In this document: positions 1 through 29,964 of the stretch, in pieces | Position numbering within the stretch: position 1 is the first letter of the stretch | Layout of the letters: each line of letters opens with the position of its first letter | Assembly: GCA_964618265.1 (NCBI GenBank) | Contig: CAZUAE010000014.1 | Span: forward strand, 4 to 64,003 | Length of the DNA: 64,000 nucleotides | From: an uncultured Spirochaetales bacterium | Lineage (GTDB): Bacteria > Spirochaetota > Spirochaetia > CAYLLE01 | Direction: 5' to 3' | Made by a program: the position numbers and the translations under genes | Notes under the pieces: model-generated | The model's input: the letters and a program-made list of their open reading frames with translations, nothing else | Told to the model about the DNA's origin: nothing | Databases searched by the model: none

Positions 1-115
1 CCTATTAAAACAATAATTTTAGTATCAGTCAATATGGTTTTCACATATATCAAACCCCTTGACTAATATGAAGAAATATATCATCATCTGTTATTTAAAA
101 TATGGAGGTAAAACG

Positions 116-2296
116 ATGAAGGTCAAGGTAAAAATGTATAATGGAACTCCCACCGCATTTATCAACGAAAAACCTGTTTTCTATTCAGCCATGTGGGGGG
201 TGCCGCCAAAAGCCGAAGGTTATGAAGAAGCGGAAATAGCACGGTGTTACGCAAAGGCCGGGGTTCACATCTACGCATTCGATGTAGGTACAAAATATGA
301 ATGGAGAGAACCGCATTCGGACGGTTCACCTCATTTTGATTTTTCCAGTCTGCAAAAGAAACTCACCAGGATAGTGGAAGCTGATCCGGAAGCGTTATTC
401 CATTTTAGAATGCATTATGAAATGCCCGATTGGTGGAGAGACCGATTTCCCGGGGAAAGTGAAATTGATTCGGATGGGAATTTGTGCAAACAGTCCTTTG
501 CATCTTCGTTCTGGCGGTCCCGGGCTAAGGAATTTATCCACGCATATGCAGAAAAGTTAACCCAGATTGGATTTATAGACAAAACAGCTGCTTTTCAAGT
601 AGGTGCCGGAGGCTCATTGGAATGGGTCAAAGGTGATACCAGCATGGGAAGAAGATGCGGTGATTATTCCGCTCCGATGAAAGCCTATTTCCGGAACTGG
701 CTCCGAAAGCGGTACGGAACGGAAGCAGCTCTTAGAAAAGCCTGGGGGAATGATTCTGTAACCTTCGAAACCGTTATGGTTCCTCCGGCGGAAGAACAAC
801 TTAACACAAGACGATACTGTTTCCGGGATCCCGTCAAAGAAGGTAATGTAATAGATTATTATCGAGCCTTAGCCGGCCTTTGTGCTGATCTGGTAATTGA
901 TTACTGCAAGACCGTGAAAGAAGCAGGAAAGGGGCAGATACTGGCCGGAGCTTTTTACGGTTACCTGGCGGAGTTGGCCTGGAACCAATGTTTCTTCGGC
1001 GTATCTGATGAAAGTGAAGTATCCACAATCCAACGCTGCGGACATCTCGGACTAAAAAGGGTACTGCAGTCCGATGCGGTTGACTTTTTAGTAAGCCCCT
1101 GCAGTTACGGGTTCCGAGGCATAGGAGGTGCAGGTGCACCCATGCCTCCCACCGAATCATTGCGGAAAAACGGAAAGCTATACATTTTTGAAGAGGATTC
1201 CCGGACTCTTACCGCAGGAAGGGACCACAACTACGGCCGGACATATACCAATAGAGACTCAGAAGCAGTTCTAAAACGTAATTTCAGTGATGTTCTTATT
1301 CGGTCCATGGGGATTTGGTGGCTCAGTCATCATCAGAATCCGATAGAAGAACCCTCTTTTCAGGAACTAATCACAAGATTTAAAAGGATCGGAGAGTTTT
1401 CCCTTTCCCTGCCCCGGCACCCGCAAGCAGAAATTGCCGTTTTGCTGGACGATGAAAGTTTCTACTTCGAGAGTCTGCGTAATGACTTAGACCTTTCCCT
1501 AATTTTTCAGCAGCGATTATGGGGATTATCACGCATAGGCGCCCCTTACGATTTCTACCTTTTAGATGATTTCTTGAACGGCGATACGGCACAGTATAAA
1601 CTCGTTGTGTTTTTAAATGCCTTCTCCCTCGATGTTTCCCGCCGGAAAGCGATCGATGCCAAGGTAAAACGGGATGGGAAAACACTTCTCTGGCTATATG
1701 CTCCCGGAATAATCAAAGAAGAGGAAGAATCCATAGAAAACATGACGGAGCTAACAGGCTTTTCCTTCGGCTGGGCTGAACATCCCTGGTATGTAAAGTG
1801 TCATGTTACACGGTTTGACCATCCTATAACTAAGGACTTGCCTCAGGATCTTTTCTGGGGTACCGACAGTAAATTATGCCCGATTTATCATATAGAAGAT
1901 GGTGATGCAGCGGTTTTAGGACAGGTAGTATACTCCTTAGGACGATGTAAACCAGGATTAGGTATTAAAGATTTTGGGGGTTGGCGGTCTGTCTATTCCG
2001 CTGCTCCAAACGTACCTCCCAGGCTGCTGCAGGGAGTTGCTAAGCATGCAGGGGTTCACATTTACAATAACGAACCGGAAGTGTTCTATGCTAATGATCA
2101 CTTTTTATGTATCCATACCCTCAAAGGAGGTAAACGGCTGATCAAATTACCCTATAAAACAGAAATAGTATATGAACTCTTCACGAAAAAACTCATTGCA
2201 GAAAACACTGACGAATTTACGCTGTCTTTAGATCCGGTAAGCACGGTTTTATTCTATACCGGCTCTTCAAAGAAGCTGAAAGATTGGTTTTATTAG
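116..2296 (+). CDS. Putative glycoside hydrolase-like protein (beta-galactosidase/GH42-like trimerisation-type region); start moved to M20
   Basis: ORF 59..2296. Internal ATG at 116 is preceded by GGAGG (tatggaggtaaaacgATG), so 116 is the likelier start. The 745-aa product has a TIM-barrel-like N-terminal part and a central region (AQYKLVVFLNAFSLD) resembling the beta-galactosidase trimerisation domain. Family assignment is by recall only. Confidence 0.45.
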   Translation: MKVKVKMYNGTPTAFINEKPVFYSAMWGVPPKAEGYEEAEIARCYAKAGVHIYAFDVGTKYEWREPHSDGSPHFDFSSLQKKLTRIVEADPEALFHFRMHYEMPDWWRDRFPGESEIDSDGNLCKQSFASSFWRSRAKEFIHAYAEKLTQIGFIDKTAAFQVGAGGSLEWVKGDTSMGRRCGDYSAPMKAYFRNWLRKRYGTEAALRKAWGNDSVTFETVMVPPAEEQLNTRRYCFRDPVKEGNVIDYYRALAGLCADLVIDYCKTVKEAGKGQILAGAFYGYLAELAWNQCFFGVSDESEVSTIQRCGHLGLKRVLQSDAVDFLVSPCSYGFRGIGGAGAPMPPTESLRKNGKLYIFEEDSRTLTAGRDHNYGRTYTNRDSEAVLKRNFSDVLIRSMGIWWLSHHQNPIEEPSFQELITRFKRIGEFSLSLPRHPQAEIAVLLDDESFYFESLRNDLDLSLIFQQRLWGLSRIGAPYDFYLLDDFLNGDTAQYKLVVFLNAFSLDVSRRKAIDAKVKRDGKTLLWLYAPGIIKEEEESIENMTELTGFSFGWAEHPWYVKCHVTRFDHPITKDLPQDLFWGTDSKLCPIYHIEDGDAAVLGQVVYSLGRCKPGLGIKDFGGWRSVYSAAPNVPPRLLQGVAKHAGVHIYNNEPEVFYANDHFLCIHTLKGGKRLIKLPYKTEIVYELFTKKLIAENTDEFTLSLDPVSTVLFYTGSSKKLKDWFY

Positions 2297-4063: not shown

Positions 4064-7000
4064 TTACCTAATCAGGATAAATTCCACCCTTCTGTTTTTC
4101 CATCGATTTTCAAGATCACTAAAAGGGACGATGGGTTGAGCGCCGCCGAGACCTTCGGTGGATATCCGCTTAGGATCCATACCTAGATCTACCAATGCGC
4201 TCTTAACAGCTTCCGCGCGGGACTTAGAAAGGGGAATAAGTTCTTCCTCCTGTTCTATTTCCCCTTTCTTTGGGTCATCGTAGTGGACCATGACGGCATG
4301 GCCTTCGATTCTAATACGATAATTGGAATATTTCTCGAATATTTCAGCGAGTCTGCGCAGCGTTCTATAGTTCCGGTCAGCTTTTTCCTCATCAACATTT
4401 TTAAAGTTTGCAGTGTTTGGTGCAAAAGTGATGCTGGAGATGCGGATTTTCAGTTTATCTCCCTCCCGAATAACCAGTACATCAATTGGTATAGTGTCCC
4501 GGACGGTGGAGGTGTTTCCGTATCTATCCGTCATAGTGAGTGTGGTCCGGTAGTCTTCAGCTGCCTGGACAAGTTCCCCTTCATCCGAAAGACCATCCCA
4601 GATTATAGATTCAGCAGGCTCTCCTGTTCCGGAAAATGTCTTAAAAGGTTTACCGGTGGGATCGTAGATAATCAGTTCCCAGGTATCTATAGGGCTTTCA
4701 TCCCGGGCATTCAGCCGGATGGTGAGTTCATCATTAAGGCCGTCATCATCCGGCGAAAACAGCTTCGGGGTTAGGGTTATGTTCGATGCCGGCGGTGATA
4801 CATCCAGTATGAACTGAGATGATTTTGTTTCAGGTCTGTTGCCTTTATGGTACTCCACAACAAACTCAGCCCTGTAATTCCCCTCGGCAGCACGGGCAGC
4901 ATCGCTCTTGCCGTTCCACGTTACGGAATCCGGAGGCACTGACGTACCGGAAAATGTTTTTTCCGTACCGCCGTCAGCATGTTCCATCTTCAGGCGCCAG
5001 CGTTTTATGCCTTCCTTAAGACCGGTATAGAGCCGGAAGGTAATCGTATCATCAGTTCCGTCACCGTTTGGTGAAAAGCCCCGGTCGGAGACGGTTGTAA
5101 AAGCTGTAGTCCTGCGGGTATCGATGGTGATATTTTCCAGCTTACGTTCAACTTTATTACCTGCCTTGTCTTGTGAACTTACTGTATATATGTATGTTCC
5201 ATCCGGGATGCTGTTCCCATTCATATCCTTGCCGTCCCAGGTAAAATCCTTCGCGTTTCCCTGCCAAAAATAAGTTTTAATCACCTTTCCGGAGGTGTCG
5301 CTTATTTCGCCTTCCCAGAGATCCTCCGTGGAAGATGACTGAGATATCGTAATTTCATCCAGATTACCGTCCCCTTCTGGCGAAAAGAGAAGTGTCTCCG
5401 CGGATAATTCAATTTCCGGATACTGAGTGTCTAACACTACAGGATTGGTTTTTGTGGTGGGTTTATTTCCATTCATATACGTAACATGTAATTCACCCAA
5501 ATAGGTTCCATCCACCGCAGGATTTCCGGCTTCATTCTTGCCGTTCCACTCTATACGTTGAGGTATTGATCTGCCGGTAAAAGTCTTAATTTCTTCACCT
5601 GAGGTGTCCTTTATCTTTAACGTATAGGATTCAAAACCTTGTGATACGGATATGTCAGGGAGAAATTCCACAGCATCCTTTATTCCGTCAGCGTTAGGTG
5701 AAAAATAACTTATGTCTGTGGAAACCAGAATAGGGGTCTGGGTGGTATCGACAGAAAAAATTACTGCTGAAGATGAACCGGCATTACCAGCTTTATCTAT
5801 AGCCTTTAGTGTATAAGAGTATTGTCCGTCCGGTACATTCTTTCCCTGGAAATTTCTTCCGTCCCAGGAAAATTCTTCATCCACTGTACCCCGCCAGGTG
5901 TATACTCTTACGGGATCACTGTCTTCGTTTCGGACTGTTCCCTCCCATAGCTGTTCATTGGAGGCAGTCTGTGTAAATATCATAATATCTTTGCTTCCGT
6001 CTCCGTTAGGAGAAAAAACGGTATACTTTCCCGAAACTTTAGCTTCCGGCGGCGTAATATCTATGACGAACAAAGACGATTTTGCTCTTTCGATATTTCC
6101 CTTTTGGTATTCCACTTCAAGTTCGGCTTTATAGCTCCCTTCCCCTGCCTTACCTATTGTCTTTTCTCCATTCCATGTTATCGAAGCGGGGAGAGAACCT
6201 GTACCGTCATAAGTTTTCATAACTGCTCCGGCGGTATCTGTAATCTTCAGGTTCCATTCCTTAATGCCGGAATTCTGTTGCAGGGAGGGTTGGAAATCTA
6301 TAGTGTCCTTATTCCCGTCTCCATTAGGAGAAAAGAATCCTCTGGAAACAGTAATGGTTACCGGAGTTGGTTTTGTATCTACCTGTATATTTTGAAGAAG
6401 TTTAACAGTAAGGTTTCCTGCCTTATCTTCACTTTGAACACGGTAGGAATAGACTCCGTCCTTTACCGTATTACCTACAGCATCAGTACCGTCCCATGTA
6501 AGATTATCAACTTCTCCGGACCAAAACCAGGAATCCACCTCCTGGCCGTTGGCATCCAGTATTTGACCTTCCCAAAGATCCTCCGCACTGGAATCCTGAG
6601 TAATAGTTATCAGGTCCTTGTTCCCGTCTCCGTCCGGAGAAAAAAGTGAAGTGTCTGAATCTACAGCAATTTTTGGGAACACAGTATCCACTACAAAAGG
6701 GGAGGTAATAACGGAGGGATTGTTTCCGTTACGGTATTCCACGGTAAACCGTGCGGAATATTCTCCGTCACGGACAGTAGTGCCTGAATCGGTTTTTCCA
6801 TTCCATATCACCGCATTGGGAGGAGTTCCCCCGCCTGAAAACGTTTTTACCGGGTTTTCCAGTGAATCTAAAACAACTATTTCATAAGATTCTATTGTAT
6901 CGGAAACTCCGAGCTCCGGAGAAAAAGTTTGTGTATCCTTTTTTCCATCTCCGTTTGGAGAAAAGTGTGTGAGTTCAAATGCAAGCTGAACAGGAGTTTC

Positions 7001-9304
7001 TCTGGTATCTATCTCAAAGGCAACAATATTGGATTGAACACTGTTTCCCGCAAGGTCTGTGGAAGAAAGCTGATAAAAATACCTGCCGTCCTCTAATAAA
7101 TTTCCATCTTCATCTCTTCCGTCCCAAGAATACTTTGTTTCCGCGTTACCCTTCCAAGTTATGGAATACATTTCATCACCATCTTCATTGGTTACAGAAC
7201 CTGTCCAAACCTCTTCGCGGCTTGTTTCCTGAAAAATAACTAGGAAATCTTTCCGTCCGTCACCGTTTGGTGAAAAAACATCCCACTGAGCTTTAGTTTG
7301 AACTGATGGAGGGGTCAAATCAAGATTGAAGGAAGGCGAAACATCCGAAGGATTGTTTCCGTTGATATACAAAAGGTCCAGTTGAGCGGTGTAGATACCT
7401 TCCGGAAGCCGTGTCCCGTCGTTATCCTTTCCGTCAAATGTTATTGTTTCCGGGAGTTCCTCTGCACCGGTAAATGAGCGGACAGTATTATCAGAATTGT
7501 CTTTTACCATTACTTCCCATTTTTCGATATTCGTTGTCGAGGGAGCGTCAATAGCAAAAAATATCGTGTCCTTTACTCCGTTCCCGTCGGGGGAAAAATT
7601 TGCATCAGAAACAGATAGATCAATAGGAGTTTTTTCAGTATTGATAATGATATTATCTGTCCTATGTGTTATGGTATTCCCCGCCTTATCGGTGGATGAT
7701 ATAACATACCAGTATACACCATCCGGTGCTAAAATCCCTTCGCTGTTTTTTCCATCCCACTGGAAAAATTCCGGTTCTCCAGCCCAGGTAAATTCCGCAA
7801 CCTTTTCTTCCACCGCATTATATATTTCCGCTTCCCATTTATCTTCTTTTGATCCGAATTGATCTATTACAAGAGTATCTTTGTTTCCGTCGTCATTGGG
7901 AGAGAAAATCGGATAGGGAAGTTCAACGGTTACCATAGGGTCCACCGTATCTATGACAACTTTTCGGGAATCTGTTTTACTGATATTTCCATTGTCGTCC
8001 CAGGCTTCGACAAAGTAGGTATATGTTCCATCCGAGACCAGAGAGCCGGCATCGTCATTTCCGTCCCATCTAAGGGATTCCGGTACTGTGATTCCTTCTT
8101 TAACGTAGAGCAGCCGGTCGATAACATTCCGGAAACCTTCATTTTCGGGACGTTCATCTTTATTTTTTATTGTGCGGACAACTTTTCCGTCAGAATCCTG
8201 AAAGATTAATCGGTATCCGCGGACGTATCTTTCGTCTTCAATAGCCAAAGGAACAAGTAAATTATCTTTTACTCCGTCGAAATTAGGAGAGATGTAGGCT
8301 ATTCCGTCAGGTCCGATGGAAATATCAGGAGGATTTCTATCAATTACTCCTAAGGGAAGGTTCGCCCCAAGCCCCATAGCCCAGATACCGTTAATCAGCG
8401 GCGCTGCTCCGGCCGTGGTTGTAATTTCACTGCGGCGCCAAACGTCTGCTTCCCCATCATCATCCGACTTCGAGCCCGTTCCGAAACTAACTGCCAAACC
8501 GAAGGACAGCGGAAACCGCTCGGTGCCGGTTAATGTATCCTGTAAATCGAAATTATACGCGCCTTTAAGACTGATCATATCAAAAAGAATTGCTGAAAGG
8601 CCCGCGCTTAAATGAACGTCCTGAAATGTCGGGAAAGCCGCATAAGAACTAAAGCCTAAGGTGAAAGGATCGGTTTCGATAAGTTTAAAAGATGTATCCA
8701 GAACAGGTGTGAATATCGAAGGGATTTTCCCCCCAGGGGAATTATATCCCTTTCCCATTCCTCTCATGGCGAATCCCCAACGAAAGTCCTTGAGAAAGCC
8801 CAAATCTCCGGGAAGGTGGACAAAGCCCAAATTCAGACCCAATCCCCAATCGGCTCCAAAAACAAAATCGAGTCCCGCGCCTACATAGAAATCCGGATAT
8901 AGATCTTTACCAAAGCTCGTATTAATCATTCCAAAAGTACCGTAAGGAAGGAATGCAAAAGGTGAAGTTAAAAAACGGCCGCTGCCGCTGAAAACACCTG
9001 CCCGTGTAGGAACCGTTACACCGGCGTTTATAACATGCCCCATTCCTGTATCCTCACCAAAACCGAGCATGTTTATATAACTCAGATCCAGAGTCAAACG
9101 CTGTTTTCCGCCGGAAGCCGCCGGATTTAAAACGTCCGACTGCGGTGATACCATTCCGGAAGCCGTAACGCCCCCCGCCAAAAAAGACGGAGAGTAGAGG
9201 TATTCAGTATCAACGAATGCGTCAGTCTGCGAAAATACCGGAATTCCTGTTATAAAAAATACTGTAATCAATATATATAAAAGTCGGCTTTTCTTGATAT
9301 CCAT
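4064..9304 (-). CDS. Giant secreted OmpA-family protein: signal peptide, Gly/Phe-rich N-terminal domain, ~12 FlgD-Ig-like repeats, C-terminal OmpA peptidoglycan-binding domain
   Basis: 1746 aa. N-terminal signal peptide (MDIKKSRLLYILITVFFITGIPVFSQ). Repeated FSPNGDGxKD / FSPDGDGNKD motifs (~12 copies) typical of FlgD-Ig-like domains. C-terminus (RIRIEGHAVMV...RAEAVKSALVDLGMDP...NRRVEFILIR) matches the OmpA C-terminal domain. Confidence 0.75.
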   Translation of the reverse strand: MDIKKSRLLYILITVFFITGIPVFSQTDAFVDTEYLYSPSFLAGGVTASGMVSPQSDVLNPAASGGKQRLTLDLSYINMLGFGEDTGMGHVINAGVTVPTRAGVFSGSGRFLTSPFAFLPYGTFGMINTSFGKDLYPDFYVGAGLDFVFGADWGLGLNLGFVHLPGDLGFLKDFRWGFAMRGMGKGYNSPGGKIPSIFTPVLDTSFKLIETDPFTLGFSSYAAFPTFQDVHLSAGLSAILFDMISLKGAYNFDLQDTLTGTERFPLSFGLAVSFGTGSKSDDDGEADVWRRSEITTTAGAAPLINGIWAMGLGANLPLGVIDRNPPDISIGPDGIAYISPNFDGVKDNLLVPLAIEDERYVRGYRLIFQDSDGKVVRTIKNKDERPENEGFRNVIDRLLYVKEGITVPESLRWDGNDDAGSLVSDGTYTYFVEAWDDNGNISKTDSRKVVIDTVDPMVTVELPYPIFSPNDDGNKDTLVIDQFGSKEDKWEAEIYNAVEEKVAEFTWAGEPEFFQWDGKNSEGILAPDGVYWYVISSTDKAGNTITHRTDNIIINTEKTPIDLSVSDANFSPDGNGVKDTIFFAIDAPSTTNIEKWEVMVKDNSDNTVRSFTGAEELPETITFDGKDNDGTRLPEGIYTAQLDLLYINGNNPSDVSPSFNLDLTPPSVQTKAQWDVFSPNGDGRKDFLVIFQETSREEVWTGSVTNEDGDEMYSITWKGNAETKYSWDGRDEDGNLLEDGRYFYQLSSTDLAGNSVQSNIVAFEIDTRETPVQLAFELTHFSPNGDGKKDTQTFSPELGVSDTIESYEIVVLDSLENPVKTFSGGGTPPNAVIWNGKTDSGTTVRDGEYSARFTVEYRNGNNPSVITSPFVVDTVFPKIAVDSDTSLFSPDGDGNKDLITITQDSSAEDLWEGQILDANGQEVDSWFWSGEVDNLTWDGTDAVGNTVKDGVYSYRVQSEDKAGNLTVKLLQNIQVDTKPTPVTITVSRGFFSPNGDGNKDTIDFQPSLQQNSGIKEWNLKITDTAGAVMKTYDGTGSLPASITWNGEKTIGKAGEGSYKAELEVEYQKGNIERAKSSLFVIDITPPEAKVSGKYTVFSPNGDGSKDIMIFTQTASNEQLWEGTVRNEDSDPVRVYTWRGTVDEEFSWDGRNFQGKNVPDGQYSYTLKAIDKAGNAGSSSAVIFSVDTTQTPILVSTDISYFSPNADGIKDAVEFLPDISVSQGFESYTLKIKDTSGEEIKTFTGRSIPQRIEWNGKNEAGNPAVDGTYLGELHVTYMNGNKPTTKTNPVVLDTQYPEIELSAETLLFSPEGDGNLDEITISQSSSTEDLWEGEISDTSGKVIKTYFWQGNAKDFTWDGKDMNGNSIPDGTYIYTVSSQDKAGNKVERKLENITIDTRRTTAFTTVSDRGFSPNGDGTDDTITFRLYTGLKEGIKRWRLKMEHADGGTEKTFSGTSVPPDSVTWNGKSDAARAAEGNYRAEFVVEYHKGNRPETKSSQFILDVSPPASNITLTPKLFSPDDDGLNDELTIRLNARDESPIDTWELIIYDPTGKPFKTFSGTGEPAESIIWDGLSDEGELVQAAEDYRTTLTMTDRYGNTSTVRDTIPIDVLVIREGDKLKIRISSITFAPNTANFKNVDEEKADRNYRTLRRLAEIFEKYSNYRIRIEGHAVMVHYDDPKKGEIEQEEELIPLSKSRAEAVKSALVDLGMDPKRISTEGLGGAQPIVPFSDLENRWKNRRVEFILIR
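4560..8320 (-). repeat. Intragenic tandem array of ~100-aa (~300-nt) FlgD-Ig-like repeats in two alternating subtypes
   Basis: Protein repeats alternate between a WEG / WDG.D..GN..DG.Y.Y / DKAGN subtype and a W.L.I.D..G / I.WNGK / VEY..GN subtype. Approximate DNA span is back-calculated from amino-acid positions 330-1580. Confidence 0.55.
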
Positions 9305-14376: not shown

Positions 14377-15003
14377 ATGGAAAAAGTTTATACCCCCCAC
14401 GAGCGTTGGGTTCCGGAAACTTACGATCAAGAGTTTAAAACACCAGGTTATCTCCCTGTATCAGCAGCATTGATAGCCGTAGAAGACCCGGAGACGGGTA
14501 TACCCAATATTATGCCCTTGGTGGCTTGGGGTTTTCTCAACCGGCTTCCGCTGTTATTAGGGGTATCCATATGTGTAAAGGAATACAACAAAAATTATTA
14601 TGTACGGGGTACCTACGAACTTATGCGTAAAGCAATGAATTTTTCACTCAACCTTCCTACCGAAGAACTCCGGGAACAAATAACTGAAACCGGCAGATTA
14701 TCACGTCACAAAGATGCTAAGGTAGACAAGTTCAAGGGGGCTGGATTAACTGCTCTTCCGGGGAATAGGATAAATAGCCCGCATATAAAAGAATGTCCGA
14801 TCAATTACGAGTGTGAAGTACGGGCAATAGTCAATATGGGATCCCACGATCTCTTTCTCGGTGAGGTAGTAGGCTGCTTTACAGACGGCGAAGTAGTCGA
14901 AGTGGTAACCAAAGAAGGAAACGATCACATAAAAATGCTCAAGAAGGACGGCACTTATACGACATTAGAGTGGCGGACACTTCTTAAACGGAGGGATGAA
15001 TAA
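14377..15003 (+). CDS. Flavin reductase-like domain protein (FMN-binding split barrel)
   Basis: Pattern typical of the flavin reductase-like domain (VAWGFLNRLPLLLGVSI ... DKFKGAGL ... ECPINYECEV ... SHDLFLGEVV). Stop overlaps the start of the next gene (TAATG). Confidence 0.55.
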   Translation: MEKVYTPHERWVPETYDQEFKTPGYLPVSAALIAVEDPETGIPNIMPLVAWGFLNRLPLLLGVSICVKEYNKNYYVRGTYELMRKAMNFSLNLPTEELREQITETGRLSRHKDAKVDKFKGAGLTALPGNRINSPHIKECPINYECEVRAIVNMGSHDLFLGEVVGCFTDGEVVEVVTKEGNDHIKMLKKDGTYTTLEWRTLLKRRDE

Positions 15004-16145
15004 TGAGTGCTGGAATTTTTTTGGAAAAAGTACAATGTCAGCTTTTTTATCTGGAGAATCAGTTGGATAACATCGTGAATATAGCTGATAAGGCTTCCGA
15101 ACTGATGATTCAGGGAGGTGAACTTTACGGGACCAGCGATGAAGTTGGCTTCGTAAATGAATTAAACGCCCGTTCAGGCGGCCTCATGAATATCAAACCG
15201 GCGCCGGATCCATCGGAAATAAAAAAAGGAGATGTGATTTTTGCAGCTACACTTGATCTAGACCCAAAGGACCAAGAAAAAAAACTGCAAGGGTTTAGGG
15301 ATGCCGGTGCTTATGTAATTCTGATCGGTTCCAGAGATGCATCTGTCATTGGAACTGCCGATTCTTTTATCGACACCGGCCTTTCTTCCGGTACTGCACC
15401 GATGGTCCCGCAAAACGGTAAGAACATATGTCCCGCCGGGGGTATTTTAAACATAACAGCCCTTTGGCTTCTTACGGCAGAATACGCTGCAGCCTGTACC
15501 CGCAGAGGGAAGATGCACATTTTCTGGCAGAGCGCCTGCCTTCCCGACGGAAAGAAGCGTAACACCAAATATAAGGGCCGGTATTTTCATACTCCGGCTG
15601 AATTCAGCATACCGGCTATTCCGCCGGAAATTTTAGGAAGGAGCTACCTTGATAATCTCCACCGCTGTTTTTCCGGATTATCCAGGTCAGAAATTGATAA
15701 ATTCCGGGAGGCCGGATCCAAGGCTGCAGAAACGATCAAGTGGGGAGGAACGGTATGGTGCGAGGCTATCGGGCATCACATGCCATCCCAGAGGGGTATT
15801 CCGGGAGATCCTGAAATTTTAACGATGGTGTTCCCCGAACAGGGAGAAGGCGGAATAACATTAAAAAACGGCGATCTGTATATTTACAACGGCTACTACA
15901 TTTATCCGGAGGAGAATCTTACAAGGGCACGGGAAGCTGAAATAGATTCGGTATGGATAACCGGGGGGCGGGAAATTCAGAAGATTTCCCCCTTTTCCAA
16001 GGAGATCCACATCGATGCGTATTGGAGATACGCTGATGCAAGTCTCTTTATTCCCAATTACGATGTCAAAATCGTACCTGCTTCCGGTGTGGTGATGACA
16101 ACGACACTTTGGATGATGACAGCGGAAACCGCAGCAAACCTCTAA
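15003..16145 (+). CDS. Tandem SIS-like domain protein (AgaS/GlmS-C-terminal-like sugar-phosphate binding architecture?), function unknown
   Basis: Two internal halves each end with a T.LW..TAE.AA motif. The N-terminal half has a SIS-like GGELYGTSDEVG ... GDVIFAATLD pattern. Translationally coupled to the upstream flavin reductase-like gene. Confidence 0.35.
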   Translation: MSAGIFLEKVQCQLFYLENQLDNIVNIADKASELMIQGGELYGTSDEVGFVNELNARSGGLMNIKPAPDPSEIKKGDVIFAATLDLDPKDQEKKLQGFRDAGAYVILIGSRDASVIGTADSFIDTGLSSGTAPMVPQNGKNICPAGGILNITALWLLTAEYAAACTRRGKMHIFWQSACLPDGKKRNTKYKGRYFHTPAEFSIPAIPPEILGRSYLDNLHRCFSGLSRSEIDKFREAGSKAAETIKWGGTVWCEAIGHHMPSQRGIPGDPEILTMVFPEQGEGGITLKNGDLYIYNGYYIYPEENLTRAREAEIDSVWITGGREIQKISPFSKEIHIDAYWRYADASLFIPNYDVKIVPASGVVMTTTLWMMTAETAANL

Positions 16146-17599
16146 TCAATTCTGCTGCCGTTGAGAAAAAAGAGAGGTACATAATGTACCTCCGGTGAGC
16201 CTTCAGTCAGTATTCTGATGGTTCCACGGTATAGTGCCTTGTATACTCCTCTGGGGGTAATACGGAGGGTACACTTTTTTTCAGCAGGACCAAACCAGGG
16301 AGCCTGGAGATAGAGTGAAAAATCCCCTGCCGGCTGTACATCCCAACCTTCGGGAAACCTACACTGCAGCATGATATTTTTCTGAAACCGTTCTCCGTTG
16401 TGGAAATAGATATCCAGCTGTTTTTCCTTTCCCTCTTGAATATAGGGGCTGCCGTCGTAATCTATAAAAACAGAGAAGAATGGAAACCTGAACTCCGATC
16501 CTTTCATCTTTTTATAGGTAGAGAGGAATTTTTCCCCTCTCGATAAAGCATCCTGAAAATTATGAGGCACAGCATGGTGCAGCTTCTCAATTCTATCGCT
16601 GAGTTCATCAATTGTTACCGGCACAAGGCTTTCCATACCCTCAACCAGGTCTCCTAAATTAAGTGATATGGTGTTTATTCCTCTTCCAATGGATTCCTGC
16701 CATTTTTCGGGGATACCCTCAATTCCGTTCATTATTCCTAAAAGAGCCCCCAGAGTTGCAGCGGTACAGTCGGTATCTTCTCCGCAGTTTACCGCAGTAG
16801 TGATACTTTTTCCGAAATCACCTTCACCGTAGAGCAGACCCAGCACTACTATGGCAACGTTCGAAGGTGCATCGTATCCCAAAGGTCCGGAATCAAACCC
16901 TTTGTTTTTATCTTCTATGGATATCCCATGTTTTGATGCCTGTCCCCTGTGTTTTTCCAAGACTAGATCCCGAGTCTCCTGCCAATCCTTTCCTTCTTTC
17001 CAAGCGCCTATGGTATCATTTACTGCTTCAGCAACACCGGAGTTCTGCGGTATAAAAGATAGTCCTATACGAAGGAGCTCTGCAGTGCTCTGGCACACAA
17101 AGGCTGTACTTTCAAGGACAGCGGTAAATACTTCCGCGTATACACCCTCACCGTCACCATGATCAACTACAGCATCCTGAAATGCGCATAGCGCAGCTTT
17201 TACAGGATTACCGGGAAAAAGACATGCCCATATCTCCGAACGGATGAAAGACCCGCAGCTGTCCTTGTATGGATTATTGATAGTTCCGCAAAGGGGAGGG
17301 GCTAATCCGCTTCTCATATTTACCTTAGCGGTTCCGTATTCAGCCCAGTGGGGCGCTACATAGTACAGCCAGTAATGGGCTAAAAGATGGGCATCAACAT
17401 CCAGACCATGCCGTTCTACAACGATAAGCCAAAGAAGCTGAATGTCCAAATCGTCATTCGGGAGCGGTTCTCCATTCAGGTTCTGGGTATAAAAACTTAC
17501 ATCATTGAGCTGCCGCTTCCATTCGAAGGGAGCACCCAAGGTTCCGCCGATGTTTTTACCCATCCAGCAGCCGTGCAGTTTACCGCGGTATTTGTCCAT
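16142..17599 (-). CDS. ADP-ribosylglycohydrolase-fold protein (DraG/ARH family) with ~140-aa C-terminal extension
   Basis: N-terminal LHGCWMGKNIGGTLGAPFEW (family G..G...GxP.E motif) and C-proximal GEDTDCTAATLGALLG (family GGDTDT motif). Starts 8 nt downstream of the GRE gene stop on the same strand. Confidence 0.7.
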   Translation of the reverse strand: MDKYRGKLHGCWMGKNIGGTLGAPFEWKRQLNDVSFYTQNLNGEPLPNDDLDIQLLWLIVVERHGLDVDAHLLAHYWLYYVAPHWAEYGTAKVNMRSGLAPPLCGTINNPYKDSCGSFIRSEIWACLFPGNPVKAALCAFQDAVVDHGDGEGVYAEVFTAVLESTAFVCQSTAELLRIGLSFIPQNSGVAEAVNDTIGAWKEGKDWQETRDLVLEKHRGQASKHGISIEDKNKGFDSGPLGYDAPSNVAIVVLGLLYGEGDFGKSITTAVNCGEDTDCTAATLGALLGIMNGIEGIPEKWQESIGRGINTISLNLGDLVEGMESLVPVTIDELSDRIEKLHHAVPHNFQDALSRGEKFLSTYKKMKGSEFRFPFFSVFIDYDGSPYIQEGKEKQLDIYFHNGERFQKNIMLQCRFPEGWDVQPAGDFSLYLQAPWFGPAEKKCTLRITPRGVYKALYRGTIRILTEGSPEVHYVPLFFLNGSRID

Positions 17600-17607
17600 T
17601 GTTTCTC

Positions 17608-19851
17608 CTAAAATTGATGCCGTGTGCGTTTTATAATTTCCCGCTGAATCTTTTTATCCAACTGGACAAAATGCACCGAAAATCCTGTGACCCGAATTAC
17701 CAGATGTTCGTATTTCTCCGGACTTTCAACAGCTGCTTCAAGGTCCTCCAAAGAAACCACATTGGCAAAAATATGCTGACCTCCAAACATGAAATGCGTC
17801 TCTGCAAATTCCGCTAAAAAAACATCAGGGGTTTCCAACCGTTTTATTCCGGGATCAAGTTCTAAATGGAGAGGACCTCCCGCATTTCGGCGAAAATCAA
17901 GCTTTGCAACAGAGGATGCTGTTGCGGTTATTCCTGATTTATTACACCCGTGGGACGGATTAGGTCCCTGCGATACCGGGTCATCGGCGCGCCGTCCGTC
18001 CGGTGTTGCACCGACCACAAGGCTGCCGTAAGCGTGTCCTGCCCAGGAGAAAAAAGCGGGCCGATAACAGGTTCCTTTACAGGTTGTATACTCAGAGAGT
18101 ACGCTGCGGAACATATCGGCTGCTTCAACCGCATACCTGTCCGCTTCCGGCTGATCGTTTCCGTATTTAGGCGCCGTAAGCATCAGCATCCTGATATCTT
18201 CATGTCCGCAATAATCTGAGTCCAGAGCCTGCTTTAGCTCCTGCAAAGAAACGCTTTTCTCCCGGAAAATTCTTGCATCTATTGCAGCTAGAGAATCCGC
18301 CACCGTTCCGATCCCGGAAAACTGCACCACCAGGCTGTTATACTTCCCTCCGGCATCGGTAATGTCCCGTCCCGACTCGATGCATCCGTGACACATCAAA
18401 CTGGTAACGGTTTCAGGCCATACAGAAGGAATACGCCTAAGCTGCCAGTCCGTCATCTCCTGAAGCGCTTTGACGGCTTTATGCATTTCCTCTTCCAGTA
18501 AATCCAGCAATTCATCTACAGAATTCAGTCCTTTAACAAAAGCACGGTTCAGTGCATTGGCCAAACATTTCACTCCGCTTACAGCCAATGTATCGTGGGC
18601 ACACCACTCTTTTCCGGGGATGCAATACCAAAAGCAGCCGGAATACGCGACATTCCAGGCATCTTCAAGCTCGACACCGTATGCTGTCTCGCTTTCCGCC
18701 AGTACATCCTGATTTATCAAAGCGGGACTGCCGGTACCATGTCTTAGGAGTACATCACAAGCATAGGTAAAAAAGTTGCGGTCAATATCTTTATGCCACA
18801 TGATACCGAACTCATTAGCTCCGCCTATTTGATCATACGCTTCCAGGAAAAGCCAACTGAGTTCATTTACCGCATCGGCTCCTTCTCTCCTTCTCCCGCC
18901 TAAGGAATAAAAAGTAGGATACTTAAGGTAGAGTTCAATTATTAAATTTTTTGCATCTTCCCGGGATATAGTACCTTTCGAAATATCTTTCCGGTAAAGG
19001 TCTAAAAGGTATTGATCTATCCGGCCGTAACCGTTACCCCCGAGCTGCATCCGTTCCGCCATAATAAAAAACCAGACAAACTGTATCCCCTCTGCAAAAC
19101 TCTTAGGCGCACCGTTCGCTAAATTAAAGCATCGCACAGCAGCGGCTTTATAACGCAGCTGCTGATCTCTGTGAGTTTCTTTCGAAGCAAGCTCCAAAGC
19201 CTTTTCACCGTGTCTCCGGATAAAACGTATGACGGCACCGCATGTCAGTTCTGCTGTTTTTAAATATTCCGCTTCCTTTCCTTTTCCGCCGTTTGATAGA
19301 AAACGCTCCCTTGAGCTGATGATACGGTCCAGGATTCCCGTCCATCCTTCTCTAATGCCGATGGATAAATCCGCGCAGGTGTGAGTCACAGGAAAGCCGA
19401 CGGATCCTGCAGCCATAGCTTTATCAGTTAATTGTTCCAGCTCTCCGTTTTCCGGGAAGATCCGCAGCCTTACATCGGGGAACTCCCAATGTATCTCTCC
19501 GGCAATTTCTTCCCCGGGATAAATTTCAGCGGGACTACCATCCATAAATGCAACAAAGTCCTCAGTAAATTGAGAAAGAGAAAATTTGATCCCCTCCGTG
19601 CTGCTGGGTACTTTCCCCGGAAAGGGTCTTCCGTTTCTTACTACAACGGACTGATCGCCCAGCATAACAAACTTTCCACCTCCGCCGTTTTTCACTGCGC
19701 TCTGCAATCCTTCCCGTCTGCCCACGGCCGGACCAGTGGACGCCTGTCCTATAGCAATATCTTCAGGCACAGAATAAAGAATTCGGGATCGGTTTTTATC
19801 TATTAAAGCCATTCTATTTCTGATGGCTTCTAATCGTTTTTCCATCCGCAT
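17608..19851 (-). CDS. Glycyl radical enzyme (PFL2 / dehydratase-lyase clade), substrate unknown
   Basis: C-terminal glycyl-radical motif VIRVTGFSVHFVQL...REIIKRT. Active-site loop CHGCIESG (thiyl Cys followed by Glu). PALINQD motif. 747 aa. RBS GGGAGAA precedes the ATG. Confidence 0.8.
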   Translation of the reverse strand: MRMEKRLEAIRNRMALIDKNRSRILYSVPEDIAIGQASTGPAVGRREGLQSAVKNGGGGKFVMLGDQSVVVRNGRPFPGKVPSSTEGIKFSLSQFTEDFVAFMDGSPAEIYPGEEIAGEIHWEFPDVRLRIFPENGELEQLTDKAMAAGSVGFPVTHTCADLSIGIREGWTGILDRIISSRERFLSNGGKGKEAEYLKTAELTCGAVIRFIRRHGEKALELASKETHRDQQLRYKAAAVRCFNLANGAPKSFAEGIQFVWFFIMAERMQLGGNGYGRIDQYLLDLYRKDISKGTISREDAKNLIIELYLKYPTFYSLGGRRREGADAVNELSWLFLEAYDQIGGANEFGIMWHKDIDRNFFTYACDVLLRHGTGSPALINQDVLAESETAYGVELEDAWNVAYSGCFWYCIPGKEWCAHDTLAVSGVKCLANALNRAFVKGLNSVDELLDLLEEEMHKAVKALQEMTDWQLRRIPSVWPETVTSLMCHGCIESGRDITDAGGKYNSLVVQFSGIGTVADSLAAIDARIFREKSVSLQELKQALDSDYCGHEDIRMLMLTAPKYGNDQPEADRYAVEAADMFRSVLSEYTTCKGTCYRPAFFSWAGHAYGSLVVGATPDGRRADDPVSQGPNPSHGCNKSGITATASSVAKLDFRRNAGGPLHLELDPGIKRLETPDVFLAEFAETHFMFGGQHIFANVVSLEDLEAAVESPEKYEHLVIRVTGFSVHFVQLDKKIQREIIKRTRHQF

Positions 19852-20006
19852 ATTCTCCCATTTTTATCAACCAAACATGTTGCTATATTATAACATCTAT
19901 TGATTATATATCAAACCTGTTTATAATATATTTCTAAACTAATTGTATTCCAAAATAATCTATGTTGTAATACCAAAACAGTTACATACAATAAAGGAAG
20001 GACACA

Positions 20007-21020
20007 ATGGATATTAAAAAAGTTCACCACGATCATCCTATTATAGATGGACATGCGGACACGTTCCTTCATTACAGGGAAAGACCGTTGGATTTCTTTT
20101 CCGGTAAGGACCGGCTGCATTTAGACCATCAGGGTCTGCAGAAGGCTCAGCAGAACCTGCAGATAATGGCGATCTACACACCGGGCAAACACACTGACCT
20201 GGAAGGGCTCCAATTTGCATTGAATCTGCTTTCTGTCTATTATCAGGCGCTGCATTCCAAGGAAAACTCGTTGCTGGAGAGACCATACCGCGGGGTTCAT
20301 ACAAAGGCCCATCTCGACAAAGTCTGCAAACCCGGCAATTACGGCTTCCTTTTGTTCATGGAAGGGGCAACCCCTTTGCGGGGAAACATACAGAACCTTA
20401 GGATTTTTTACGAATTAGGTATTCGGGGAATAACATTGACTCATAATTTCGACAACGAAGCCGCTAAGGGATGTTTTGCGGAAGGTAAAAACAGAGGACT
20501 GACAAAATTCGGTAAAGAACTTGTCCGCGAGATGGAAAACATCGGTATGGCAGTGGACCTGGCCCACTCCAACGAAGACACCTTTTGGGATGTTATCCGC
20601 ATTGCCAAAAAACCGGTACTCGATTCTCATACCGGCCTTAGAACTATCCGGGATTTTCCCCGGAATATAACCGATGAACAGGTAAAAGCAATAGCAAATA
20701 CCGGCGGAGTCGTTTGCATCAGCTTCCTCCCGGACCAGTTAAAACCGGGAATAATGGAAGAAGGGAAAGCCGAAATTTCCGATGTAGTCAGAAACATCCT
20801 GCATGCCGCGGAAATCGGCGGTATCGACCATGTGGGGCTTGGTTCGGATTGGGACGGTTTTGACGGCGCCGTTTCGGGATTGGAAGGACCGGACAAACTG
20901 CCGTCACTGACCAAAGCATTGTTTGATGCAGGACTTTCGGAAGAGGAAGCGGCAAAGGTTCTCGGAGGGAATATGTACCGGTTACTTTCGGAAGTCTTAT
21001 CGATGAGCAATGAACATTAA
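20007..21020 (+). CDS. Membrane (renal-type) dipeptidase, peptidase family M19
   Basis: N-terminal HHDHPIIDGHADT motif and overall M19 pattern. SD aaggaagg precedes the ATG. Confidence 0.75.
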   Translation: MDIKKVHHDHPIIDGHADTFLHYRERPLDFFSGKDRLHLDHQGLQKAQQNLQIMAIYTPGKHTDLEGLQFALNLLSVYYQALHSKENSLLERPYRGVHTKAHLDKVCKPGNYGFLLFMEGATPLRGNIQNLRIFYELGIRGITLTHNFDNEAAKGCFAEGKNRGLTKFGKELVREMENIGMAVDLAHSNEDTFWDVIRIAKKPVLDSHTGLRTIRDFPRNITDEQVKAIANTGGVVCISFLPDQLKPGIMEEGKAEISDVVRNILHAAEIGGIDHVGLGSDWDGFDGAVSGLEGPDKLPSLTKALFDAGLSEEEAAKVLGGNMYRLLSEVLSMSNEH

Positions 21021-23376
21021 ATACAACCGTCTTTCACCGAATCTTTCTCAGGTGCGTCTCAACTTTGTAATGAATCTAAGCCTTATAAGCGGAGCATCCG
21101 GAACACTCTGGCTCATACTCTGTTCGCCGCAACCCATATTTATTGTTTTCTTCCAAAATAGACTAGGGGCATCTTCGAGTCTTCTTGGGTTACTGATGAC
21201 CGTTATCCAGCTCTCGGCTATTTTCAATCTAGTATCCATCCCCATTTATGCCGGTCTAAAAAAGAAAAAGGCTTTCTGGCTTCTTTGTCATCTTATCCAT
21301 CGGCTTAACGGATTTTTTCTCGCAGCTATAGCTTTGTGGGCTGCGGAGAGTACCGATCCCGCAAAAAGCGCCCGCCTTATAATCGGAGTAATGACAGTCA
21401 GCTGGTTCCTGATGAACATAAGTGCATCGGGGTGGTGGGGCTGGATCGCCGATCTTATTCCGGAGAAAAAAAGGGCCGCCTTTTTCGGACGCAGATCCGC
21501 TGTCGCTAACGTTATAAATATTATCAGTTTTTTCATAATCACCGTTTTACTCGATTCCTTCGCACAAAATAGGATTTTCTACCTCTATGCTGTTCTTTTC
21601 TTTTTGGGCGGTATCGGAGGGATGATAGATATTTTGCTACACCTTTTCGTTCCGGAGACAGTTTCAAAAGATGATATGATTCCTATACTGAAAAAACATT
21701 TTTTTGAGCCGATCCGTAATAAAAACTTCCTCCTGTTTTCCTTCTCCATAGGAGCAGCAATTTTCTCAATTAACATTGCGGCACCGTTTATACCGCCCTT
21801 TATAACATCCCCGGATACATTAGGAGCACCTAACACTTGGCTGGGGATAATGTTTGTGATTTCCCAACTCACCTGGATCGTAGTTTCCAGACCGACGGGT
21901 ATAATAATGGACCGATTCGGCAGAAAACCTGTTGTAATAATTGGAGCCCTCTTCCCGCTGTCGTGGATAGGCTATTTTTTTATCGGTCCAGGGAATTACA
22001 TCTATCTGCTTCCAGCAATATCCCTGGCGGGAGGACTGCTGTCTCCTGCTTTCTACGACGGTCTTTCCCAGATGATGCTGACCCTGACGCCAAAAAAGAA
22101 CAGAATCGCCTTTGTAGCATGGTTCTGGTCTATCGTAGGGGCCGTTTCCTCCGGGGGATCATTATTAGGGGGGATCCTAAACGACTCCTTAAAATATGTT
22201 TCCATAGATACAGGTTTTATAACAATTACCGGATTCAAAATTGTTTTGGCCGTCTCGATAGTTCTCATAACAATGAGCGCTCTTTTTCTCTCCCGGATTT
22301 CCGAAGGAAGGGTAAAAGATGTTGGATTTGTAGTTTCCCGAATCACCAATCCCGGCATATTCCGTACCTTTCTGAATATGGAGGTGATATCAAAAACAGC
22401 AAGTACCGAAAAAGCTCTCAAAGCTCTTAGGTCAATCGACGGCTCTAAAGGGGACATTGCCCTGGAAGAAGTTTTGGAACGCCTGGATGATCCGAATCCG
22501 GAAATCCGGGAGGAAGCAGCAAAAGCATTGGGCAGAATCGGTGCGGAAGACGCAGCACAAGCTCTTATAGATAGATTAAAGGACAGTCATTCCACAATCC
22601 GAATACAGGCAGCTCAGGCATTAGGAAGGATCGGGAATCCCGCGGCAATACCTGCATTGATGGAAGGAATAAACTCACCCTCGGAGGAACTTCAGGAGGC
22701 TTGTATACAGGCTCTTGGTAAAATCGGGGGCGACCAATCGACAGAAACCCTTATCAGCATTTTTAAACGCGCCGGGTCCGACCGGATCTTTGCATCCGGA
22801 GCGGAAGCAGTTTCCTCCATGGGGATCTTTGAAGCCGCCTGGGAAATCGTTCCCCGAATGCACCAAACGGCGAACCCGGTACTCCGAAATCAATTATCCA
22901 TTGCATTGGGTAATATTTTGGGAACACCCGGCGAATTTTATCAATACCTAACGGGAAGCAGTCTACAAAGGGAACAGAAAACCCAGAAGCTGATTCAGGA
23001 CACTCAGCGGAACGTTGCTGCTCTTATAAAAAAAACAAAAGACTCCCCGGATAATAAGCAGCAATTAAAATTACTCCTAAGATTACTTAAAAAAACAGAA
23101 GAAAATTTTTTAGAAGATCGCTTTCAAGAGGCCTTTGACAGCCTATACGAGTTCAGTAAAATTTTTCTTGCGGCCATAATTCCTGGAAATCAAAAGGAGG
23201 ATTTGACGGAAACTGCTGCCTTTCTAGAACCTAAATTAGGATTATGGTATTGGTTTATTAAAACCACTCGGACACAGTACGAACAAAACATGAATCCCAT
23301 TTCTCTGAAAATAGATGTAATGCTGGGCTTCTATTTCTTAAGCCGATTCAAACGCCGGAGAAAAAATACCGATTGA
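21010..23376 (+). CDS. MFS transporter fused to a C-terminal HEAT/PBS-lyase repeat domain
   Basis: ~12 predicted TM helices in the first ~450 aa. C-terminal EIREEAAKALGRIG / IRIQAAQALGRIG / LQEACIQALGKIG HEAT-like repeats. Start overlaps the dipeptidase stop by 11 nt. Confidence 0.6.
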   Translation: MNIKYNRLSPNLSQVRLNFVMNLSLISGASGTLWLILCSPQPIFIVFFQNRLGASSSLLGLLMTVIQLSAIFNLVSIPIYAGLKKKKAFWLLCHLIHRLNGFFLAAIALWAAESTDPAKSARLIIGVMTVSWFLMNISASGWWGWIADLIPEKKRAAFFGRRSAVANVINIISFFIITVLLDSFAQNRIFYLYAVLFFLGGIGGMIDILLHLFVPETVSKDDMIPILKKHFFEPIRNKNFLLFSFSIGAAIFSINIAAPFIPPFITSPDTLGAPNTWLGIMFVISQLTWIVVSRPTGIIMDRFGRKPVVIIGALFPLSWIGYFFIGPGNYIYLLPAISLAGGLLSPAFYDGLSQMMLTLTPKKNRIAFVAWFWSIVGAVSSGGSLLGGILNDSLKYVSIDTGFITITGFKIVLAVSIVLITMSALFLSRISEGRVKDVGFVVSRITNPGIFRTFLNMEVISKTASTEKALKALRSIDGSKGDIALEEVLERLDDPNPEIREEAAKALGRIGAEDAAQALIDRLKDSHSTIRIQAAQALGRIGNPAAIPALMEGINSPSEELQEACIQALGKIGGDQSTETLISIFKRAGSDRIFASGAEAVSSMGIFEAAWEIVPRMHQTANPVLRNQLSIALGNILGTPGEFYQYLTGSSLQREQKTQKLIQDTQRNVAALIKKTKDSPDNKQQLKLLLRLLKKTEENFLEDRFQEAFDSLYEFSKIFLAAIIPGNQKEDLTETAAFLEPKLGLWYWFIKTTRTQYEQNMNPISLKIDVMLGFYFLSRFKRRRKNTD

Positions 23377-29500: not shown

Positions 29501-29964
29501 ATTTACCCGGCAGCCTGAGAAACAGCATCGAAGATTCTTTAGTATTGGAAATGCTTCAGATTTCCCGGGAGTCTACTTTGAAGTTTATCCAGGGTCCTAT
29601 AGGAGAAGAGCTCAAAAAAGCCGATTGGGTAGAACCCGAATTAAGCTTCCTGTACCAACCCGCTAATCTTCGTGTCTTTATATCCGGTATTATTGATCTA
29701 GTTTACTTAAAGAACGGTACAATAAACATAATTGACTTTAAAACCGACAGAATAAAAAACCCGGCGGAGTATAGAATTCAATTAGGAATATACCGCTTAG
29801 CAGCAGAAGAACTATACAACGAAGAAAAAAAGACGGGTACTGAGATAAAAACTGCTCTTTACTATCTAAGAGACCACTCTTTAACGTTAGTACCCCCCGA
29901 TGCCGGCATCCTTAAAAAGGTTAAAACCATTATTACACCCCAAGCTCCTCAAGAACATCTTTAG
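26590..29964 (+). CDS. addA: ATP-dependent helicase/nuclease subunit AddA/RexA (UvrD-like helicase plus RecB-type nuclease)
   Basis: Walker A AGAGSGKTT, motif II MIDEFQDNN, C-terminal RecB-nuclease motif GIIDLVYLKNGTINIIDFKTD. 1124 aa. Confidence 0.8.
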   Translation: MEKKRFFIDQYQEQAITQDQNCIVTAGAGSGKTTILARRFLRLIIEGKGDVESILTLTFTRKAAAEMHDRIYRFLIEEAPGNPRAAQAAAMFDKAQISTIDSFCSQIVRGKAGSYGISPDFTTDEETIVSLIKDTALDFVLRHSKNSELGEFAGANGFNRIIDDCLVPIGFENFLIARPLDLEKIWNKQKQLLFTELRKIRKKFSDYLTIINNIDHPGKTLKTCLNCFDLFPAGDSKEEWSVFMNEIGSIHKPPGKKTEAMSLLADTIQDMRNDAQIHKKITKTLELETFIRGFNNLMGKYQQEIIDKKIENSLLSFQDVMILAIEILKNFPEERRYYGTKYSHIMIDEFQDNNELQRDLLYLLAANNDFSDSAVPAIEFIVPEKLFFVGDEKQSIYRFRGADVSVFKGLSNELTAAGGKHLVLKKNYRSEPALIDFYNQIFEPIMSPGTESYEAVFTPMESVETPRENEPRVLVFYKSKPEKEEILPDEDYLNSTEAEAFHIASFIKKSVENSELTVKEKGSASRPAQYKDFAVLMRSMGNQIIYERIFRNFSIPYTVKNARSLFQEAPVNDIYNFLQLCVYPDDRSAYAAVLRSPLVNVSDSTMVNLLLSPGPLFNTDGNSSCDLAKLRNAADMYREIKQSIDIKSPGEIIFEIWYRYGYRYSLLSDPKYHPYLDYYRFFKAFAEKYNDISMVTFLDKIRDRLGKYGKADEIEVTPEHIAGVQIMSIHASKGLEFPVVIAADLGNTGKSNTQGSNPYYFSDRYGLSFNFSNSVGSTLGKYNIFYDWGKEEEILKEEAELKRLLYVAATRAESYLVLSCSEKKRNAGISHLGLLKTGLGIRPDASIDPAGLLKGLYKIQEISEIPKDRLYHVPRLKAADTEKIKGYYKKPKAPTHFPKKEFSATELNTLWNKKSETTCTGIIEKLPEISIDRLKDAEYPENLHNTLGSIVHLHLEHSIRKGAVSELSLRDLPGSLRNSIEDSLVLEMLQISRESTLKFIQGPIGEELKKADWVEPELSFLYQPANLRVFISGIIDLVYLKNGTINIIDFKTDRIKNPAEYRIQLGIYRLAAEELYNEEKKTGTEIKTALYYLRDHSLTLVPPDAGILKKVKTIITPQAPQEHL

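Follow-up and report, generated by a model that had tools for sequence, protein, structure and literature searches.

Glycyl radical enzymes (GREs) are oxygen-sensitive and are a main source of difficult anaerobic chemistry. Here we analyzed a GRE gene that is directly followed by a gene for a protein of the ADP-ribosylglycohydrolase (ARH) fold, in a 64,000-nucleotide stretch of DNA (64 kb, hereafter the window) from an uncultured Spirochaetales bacterium of a microbial mat, contig CAZUAE010000014.1. In window coordinates, the pair and its signals are arranged as follows.

19887 to 19914, minus strand: promoter-like site TTGATA-16-TATAAT with a TG extended -10, upstream of the GRE gene; 11 of 12 consensus positions agree, as a consensus match only
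17608 to 19851, minus strand: GRE of 747 amino acids with PFL-like and Gly_radical domains
17600 to 17607, minus strand: intercistronic gap of 8 nucleotides between the GRE and ARH genes
16142 to 17599, minus strand: ARH-fold hydrolase of 485 amino acids, with the Pfam ADP_ribosyl_GH match at residues 10-298 (149 bits)

The GRE stop codon TAG overlaps an AGGAG ribosome-binding site (RBS) located 7 nucleotides ahead of the ATG of the ARH gene, which suggests that translation of the two genes may be coupled. No terminator-like site was found between them, and the promoter-like site falls in the 155-nucleotide divergent intergenic region upstream of the GRE gene. Judged from this layout, the GRE and ARH genes form a predicted bicistronic operon. 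The GRE gene is also intact in the strain variants L180 and L181 from a second sample, which differ from the window by 20 mismatches in 11 kb; the substitutions, one in the GRE gene and four in the ARH gene, are too few for dN/dS. An earlier reading made from the DNA letters of the window (the original prediction) had described a 747-residue GRE with an RVTGF glycyl loop and, 8 nucleotides from its stop codon, a 485-residue ARH-fold open reading frame (ORF). Both genes, their Pfam families and the spacing were borne out by our analysis.

Both ORFs are intact, and the GRE product is 745 residues long if the second ATG is the start, as in the public gene call P0001. The GRE matched the Pfam families PFL-like (PF02901, 295 bits) and Gly_radical (PF01228, 64 bits), where the PFL-like match begins at residue 155 and the N-terminal 150 residues are divergent. 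The C-terminal glycyl loop is RVTG723F, following the RVxG[FYW] pattern of the GRE superfamily. The original prediction had placed the thiyl radical cysteine in a GCIE loop, but this cysteine (C490, residues 489-492) is variable in the family, where C, T, P or S is found. When the GRE was aligned with the B12-independent glycerol dehydratase (GD, 1r8w) by HMMER, the catalytic C433 of the GCVE loop of GD corresponded to C406 in 'YSGCFWYCIPGK'. All 23 sequences of a family alignment have C406 and W408, and the cysteine is also shared by all of the top 120 matches. The Cys loop of the window GRE is then SGCFWYC, that is, S-G-C406-F-W408-Y-C. Since C406 in this loop is the catalytic cysteine, the window GRE lacks the CXE motif of GRE 1,2-eliminases and isomerases, and reads C406-F407-W408 with a Trp that is invariant in the clade. 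All C-O, C-N and C-S eliminases characterised so far keep the CXE motif, and so does every GRE isomerase (2026 GRE review, PMC13450708); this group of enzymes comprises GD, PD, HypD, CutC, IslA, HpsG, PflD/YbiW and HplG. Based on the alignment, H157 and D420 are conserved counterparts of His164 and Asp447 of GD, and the invariant E415 is a candidate base. All 87 invariant columns of the 23-sequence alignment, which includes the query, are retained.

Comparing the GRE with the characterised clades, as had been proposed at the outset, we found that it lies outside all of them. No NCBIfam GRE equivalog cutoff was reached and every score was far lower. The best was PFL2-3 with 316 bits against a cutoff of 678, and the others include HypD (286 against 1100), HpsG (241 against 1000), HpfG (232 against 1000), CutC (211 against 1050), IAD (174 against 1100), HPAD (160 against 1150) and PFL (108 against 994). 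The AlphaFold2 model of the GRE (pLDDT 89) gave TM-scores of 0.81-0.83 to GD, HypD, PflD, PD and CutC, with 0.83 for GD, HypD and PflD; it is about equally distant from all five, and its identity to all solved GREs is 20-25%. As far as sequence comparison can tell, the window GRE is a PFL2-like enzyme of an uncharacterised, widespread, non-CXE clade.

The homologues of the GRE make up an unnamed clade of proteins of about 755 residues, which is spread over Bacteroidota, Treponema, Lachnospiraceae, Verrucomicrobiota, Acidobacteriota, Chloroflexota and Lentisphaerota. Among GTDB species representatives, 151 clade stretches were confirmed. The clade occurs in at least 151 species-level genomes, and the hosts include gut Parabacteroides, Blautia and Faecalicatena, termite-gut Treponema, and metagenome-assembled genomes of Verrucomicrobiota, Acidobacteriota and Chloroflexota. 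The Cys loop G-C-[Q/F/H/Y]-W-Y is common to all of the top 120 matches. Within the clade, the subclade of the window GRE is marked by SGCFWYC together with RVTGF, and the nearest non-self relative of the window GRE is 56% identical to it. A Gln-type branch of the clade carries SGCQWYC/KVTGY and has a GH29 alpha-L-fucosidase neighbour in at least 22 of 80 genomes (L001-L080), often accompanied by AraC, MFS and GH95-like genes. The adjoining GH29 genes suggest a fucose-related substrate for this branch. Neither the window nor the loci of the Phe-type subclade contain GH29.

Recurrent neighbours in the wider clade include AraC (38 loci), MFS (26), GH29 fucosidase (at least 22), LacI (17) and URO-D-like genes (14-15), together with GH95-like and PhyH genes. 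Around the subclade members we found SIS, PfkB, Inos-1-P_synth-like, GFO_IDH_MocA, GatZ/KbaZ and LacI/IclR genes, sugar ABC or MFS transporters, and GH31, GH106 and URO-D-like genes, and the surroundings of P0021 are similar. Considering that these neighbours are sugar-catabolic, they point to a sugar, polyol or phosphosugar derivative as the clade substrate, and not to hydroxyproline. As a separate observation, URO-D-like (PF01208) genes lie near the GRE clade in 15 of 80 wider and 7 of 13 close loci, and near the ARH family in 8 of 80 loci; examples are L084 5397-6557 and 9904-11160, L091 7876-9063, L176 15468-16628 and L104 11550-12620. We considered them as a bridge between the GRE and ARH families and rejected this, since they are only 25-28% mutually identical and none is present in the window.

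The ARH-fold protein consists of an ARH domain (about residues 1-345) and an immunoglobulin (Ig)-like beta-sandwich (about residues 367-480), and no signal peptide is evident in it. The protein matches PF03747 and has the ARH fold. In its family, E26, N48-D49-D50 and D275-T276-D277-C278 are invariant, at a mean column identity of 64%. The motifs around E26 and D275/D277 could be aligned with those of DraG and Lmo0067, and N48-D49-D50 was matched to TDD by motif position only, with Asn48 and Cys278 in place of Thr. The invariant NDD and DTDC of the family thus stand where TDD and DxDT metal-site motifs are usual, and a Cys for a Thr ligand hints that a different metal or chemistry may be used. 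Whether the catalytic residues are conserved had been raised as a check on the original prediction; the invariant acidic residues of the family are retained, and the catalytic machinery looks intact from the alignment. With the DraG and Tri1 equivalog models, which have cutoffs of 337-490, the protein scores about 24 bits. The family itself is very large and unnamed, with more than 4,800 matches. The best of these, proteins of about 510 residues, share about 50% identity along their whole length and belong to Phycisphaerae, Verrucomicrobia, Armatimonadetes, or metagenomes of gut and termite origin. Its neighbours in 80 metagenome loci are heterogeneous and lean to sugar ABC transporters, AraC, URO-D-like and glycoside hydrolase (GH)-like proteins. 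The ARH-fold protein is predicted to be cytoplasmic, and its very large family, in which ARH and Ig-like domains are joined, is uncharacterised.

The original prediction had called the GRE an orphan, with no activase in the window. We searched the whole 64 kb by a six-frame scan for CxxxCxxC and by tblastn with six activases from relatives. The only occurrence of the motif was in a spurious ORF antisense to the ARH gene, and tblastn gave nothing better than E = 0.32, in agreement with the predicted absence. The view that such absence is unusual did not hold. Of the 69 wider-clade loci that could be tested, 61 encode an activase of about 320 residues (CPLxCxWC) immediately after the GRE, and the other 8 have no activase within about 10 kb of the GRE. 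In the subclade, the activase lies upstream of the GRE in P0002 and P0004, is fused to the GRE N-terminus in P0010 (1077 residues), and is missing from the GRE locus in P0006, P0009, P0012 and the window, that is, in 4 of 7 loci. Furthermore, E. coli TdcE is activated by the distally encoded PflA (PMC13450708). Because of these loci and this precedent, an orphan GRE is not unusual here. The 1077-residue activase-GRE fusion lies at L081 10001-13234 and L082 2862-6095, where an N-terminal radical-SAM motif CNLRCGWC precedes a GRE of the SGCFWYC subclade, and biochemical work could use it as a self-activating construct.

Four further genes of the window bear on the interpretation or adjoin the pair.

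20007 to 21020, plus strand: M19 dipeptidase, divergent from the GRE gene, with uncertain membership in the pathway
21010 to 23376, plus strand: fusion of MFS_1 with C-terminal HEAT repeats, 788 amino acids, co-oriented with the M19 gene and the gene of a Flavin_Reduct protein
15003 to 16145: ORF of 380 amino acids that converges on the ARH gene, with a 4-nucleotide overlap of the 3' ends (16142-16145)
59 to 2296, plus strand: protein of 745 amino acids with a weak GH42 match, first ORF of the window, 15 kb from the GRE-ARH pair

The arrangement of the M19 and MFS-HEAT genes is as originally described. An M19 homologue with 54% identity lies 4.6 kb from the GRE in the relative L083, and no MFS-HEAT protein was found near the GRE or ARH gene of relatives. 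The 380-residue ORF gave only a weak NCBIfam SIS match and no Pfam or PDB match; it is start/stop-coupled to the 208-residue Flavin_Reduct protein. Elsewhere in the window, and unrelated to the GRE-ARH pair, are a 1746-residue surface-type protein (4064-9304; 8 FlgD_ig and 4 CHU_C stretches, Big_13 and OmpA) and a 969-residue large-form glutamate dehydrogenase (29933-32842).

The operon most likely serves the anaerobic catabolism of a sugar or glycoside, with its activase encoded elsewhere in the genome. In full, we propose a lineage-specific bicistronic operon with a distal activase, where the GRE acts on a sugar-type compound and the ARH-fold protein, as a glycosidase-type hydrolase, acts on the same substrate class; we hold this proposal with middling confidence. 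The window GRE would be an active enzyme, and a radical-SAM activase with its gene outside the window would activate it in trans. A thiyl radical on C406 would take an H atom from a hydroxylated sugar, polyol or phosphosugar derivative, with H157 and D420 acting as in GD. A base other than the Cys+2 Glu would take part, for which E415 is the candidate. The ARH-fold enzyme may be a metal-dependent hydrolase of the glycosidase type, and its probable task is to provide, or to convert further, a glycoside or ribosyl compound of the substrate class used by the GRE.

Several results weigh against this proposal, among them the lack of co-occurrence of the two genes in either search direction. In none of the 13 loci that represent the six closest relatives of the GRE is there an ARH gene. 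Among 80 wider GRE loci, an ARH-fold gene was found in one (L067), where it belongs to another subfamily (27% identity) and is not adjacent, lying 6 kb from the GRE on the opposite strand. Searching from the ARH side, a GRE was found nearby in one of 80 ARH-family loci (L097), and this GRE is of an unrelated CXE type. At L097 1699-5679, the ARH-family gene is followed by an activase (CPLRCQWC; TIGR02494, 215 bits) and then by the GRE, which belongs to a separate large unnamed family of about 696 residues with the Cys loop AACWEF. Two relatives of the L097-type GRE both have the upstream activase, and neither has an ARH neighbour. A GRE-ARH frequency of about 1 in 80 is close to that of random placement. 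The idea of a GRE-ARH module, which the original prediction was ready to give up if the genes were not co-conserved in related genomes, thus failed, and we infer that the pairing is a lineage-specific arrangement and not a conserved system. In addition, the contexts of the ARH family are heterogeneous, with some members among housekeeping genes (e.g., L104), and the kinase, isomerase and dehydrogenase genes of the relatives' loci are missing from the window locus. The analogy to eliminases is not secure because the window GRE lacks CXE, as do PFL, the X-succinate synthases and PAD. In the literature, we found no paper linking a GRE with an ARH-fold protein, consistent with the original remark that no such pathway was known, and searches on GRE with fucosidase, ARH with glycoside hydrolase, fucoidan or polysaccharide utilization loci returned nothing relevant.

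The absence of co-conservation and the highly variable neighbours of the ARH family also favour an incidental adjacency, in which a mobile single-gene ARH unit landed downstream of the GRE and the two genes, although co-transcribed, serve unrelated pathways, with the activase elsewhere. In line with this, the slot downstream of the GRE in relatives is taken by an activase, a cupin, a URO-D, a GH42-like or a Spermine_synth-domain protein. However, the 8-nucleotide spacing with the overlapping RBS suggests selected co-expression, L097 is a second, independent locus with the order ARH, activase and GRE, and the GH42-like family adjoins both the GRE and ARH families in other genomes. We consider the incidental explanation quite possible, although we would not call it probable.

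A homologue of the 745-residue window protein lies directly downstream of the GRE in L083 (11432-13621, 56% identity), the relative that also holds the 54%-identical M19. Another lies directly downstream of an ARH-family gene in L116 (9619-11763), with 26% full-length identity and E = 5e-59, and a third lies 3 kb from the GRE in L063 (5449-7284). The GRE, ARH and GH42-like families all occur within 20 kb in the window. Together with L097, these loci place the three families next to one another in pairs, and do so in independent lineages, which loosely fits a shared pool of glycoside-catabolic genes and does not prove it. The GH42-like protein is a possible third component of the proposed sugar or glycoside pathway.

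The original prediction had speculated on a peptide-derived substrate, for example of the hydroxyproline type, in which case the M19 dipeptidase and the MFS-HEAT transporter would supply an amino-acid-derived compound to the GRE. The divergent position of the M19 gene, its homologue near the L083 GRE, and a Peptidase_S58 gene that follows the GRE-activase pair in L063 are consistent with this. However, the HypD score of 286 bits is far under the cutoff of 1100, and the window GRE does not carry the CXE motif, which is kept by every hydroxyproline-acting GRE. The other five close relatives are found in sugar loci without peptidases, and the M19 gene recurs in L083 only, where its sharing may mean common ancestry, as the GRE, M19 and GH42-like proteins of L083 and the window are 54-56% identical. 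A peptide or hydroxyproline-type pathway is therefore unlikely.

We regard as very unlikely that the GRE is an inactive relic for want of an activase. The lack of an activase in the window would agree with a relic, but the ORF is intact and keeps all family-invariant columns, including G723, C406, H157 and D420. Both the promoter-like site and the RBS of the operon are strong, the GRE gene is intact in the strain variants from the second sample, and distal activation has the precedent of TdcE and PflA. Least credible is a DraG-like regulation, in which the ARH-fold protein would free the GRE or its activase of an inhibitory ADP-ribosyl group: it has only the family name and the operon link in its favour, whereas no ADP-ribosyltransferase is among the annotated neighbours, the DraG and Tri1 scores are far from their cutoffs, and the ARH family, with its glycosidase-style beta-sandwich, lies mostly by sugar transporters. 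A toxin-immunity or defence reading was rejected as well, since PADLOC gave no match for the GRE or the ARH protein.

Returning to the proposed sugar or glycoside operon, whole GRE clades are still without an assigned function (2026 review, PMC13450708). The clade of the window GRE is found in carbohydrate loci and has an invariant Trp for the eliminase Glu, and it could plausibly contribute a new radical step to the anaerobic breakdown of sugars. The ARH-fold family is equally abundant and unstudied, and it may act apart from ADP-ribose. A bolder version of the proposal is that the GRE performs a new chemistry on a sugar-derived substrate without the Cys+2 Glu and is fed by the ARH-fold/Ig-like glycosidase, possibly together with the GH42-like protein. 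This version is doubtful; if true, the ARH fold would gain a catabolic role unrelated to ADP-ribose. The interest of the locus rests on the unstudied non-CXE GRE clade, and not on the GRE-ARH pairing as a new two-enzyme system.

Compared with GD (1r8w), HypD, PD, CutC and PflD/YbiW, the window GRE is predicted by the model to share the ten-stranded barrel fold (TM 0.81-0.83), and it has the C-terminal RVxG[FY] Gly loop and a Cys loop at the homologous position. H157 and D420 match His164 and Asp447 in the case of GD, and the sugar-type gene context of its relatives resembles that of PflD/YbiW anhydroglycolysis. In contrast, the window GRE is only 20-25% identical to these enzymes and far under their curated cutoffs, its Pfam match begins at residue 155 after a divergent N-terminus, and it has no adjacent activase. 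While the Cys+2 residue is a catalytic Glu in those enzymes, it is an invariant Trp in the window clade, and in lacking CXE the window GRE is like PFL, the X-succinate synthases and PAD. E. coli TdcE and PflA offer a parallel for a GRE without an adjacent activase, where the activase of the window GRE is presumably also encoded elsewhere; they differ in that TdcE and PFL are close paralogues whose Gly loops are identical. With the PF03747 proteins ARH3, DraG, MJ1187 and Tri1, the ARH-fold protein of the window shares the Pfam match (149 bits), the Glu of G-x-x-L-G-x-P-x-E and the D-x-D motif of a putative di-metal site. On the other hand, it is 13-21% identical to them, its family has sugar transporters and GH-like genes as neighbours and not ADP-ribosyltransferases, and it has NDD and DTDC for TDD and DxDT as well as an extra Ig-like C-terminal domain.

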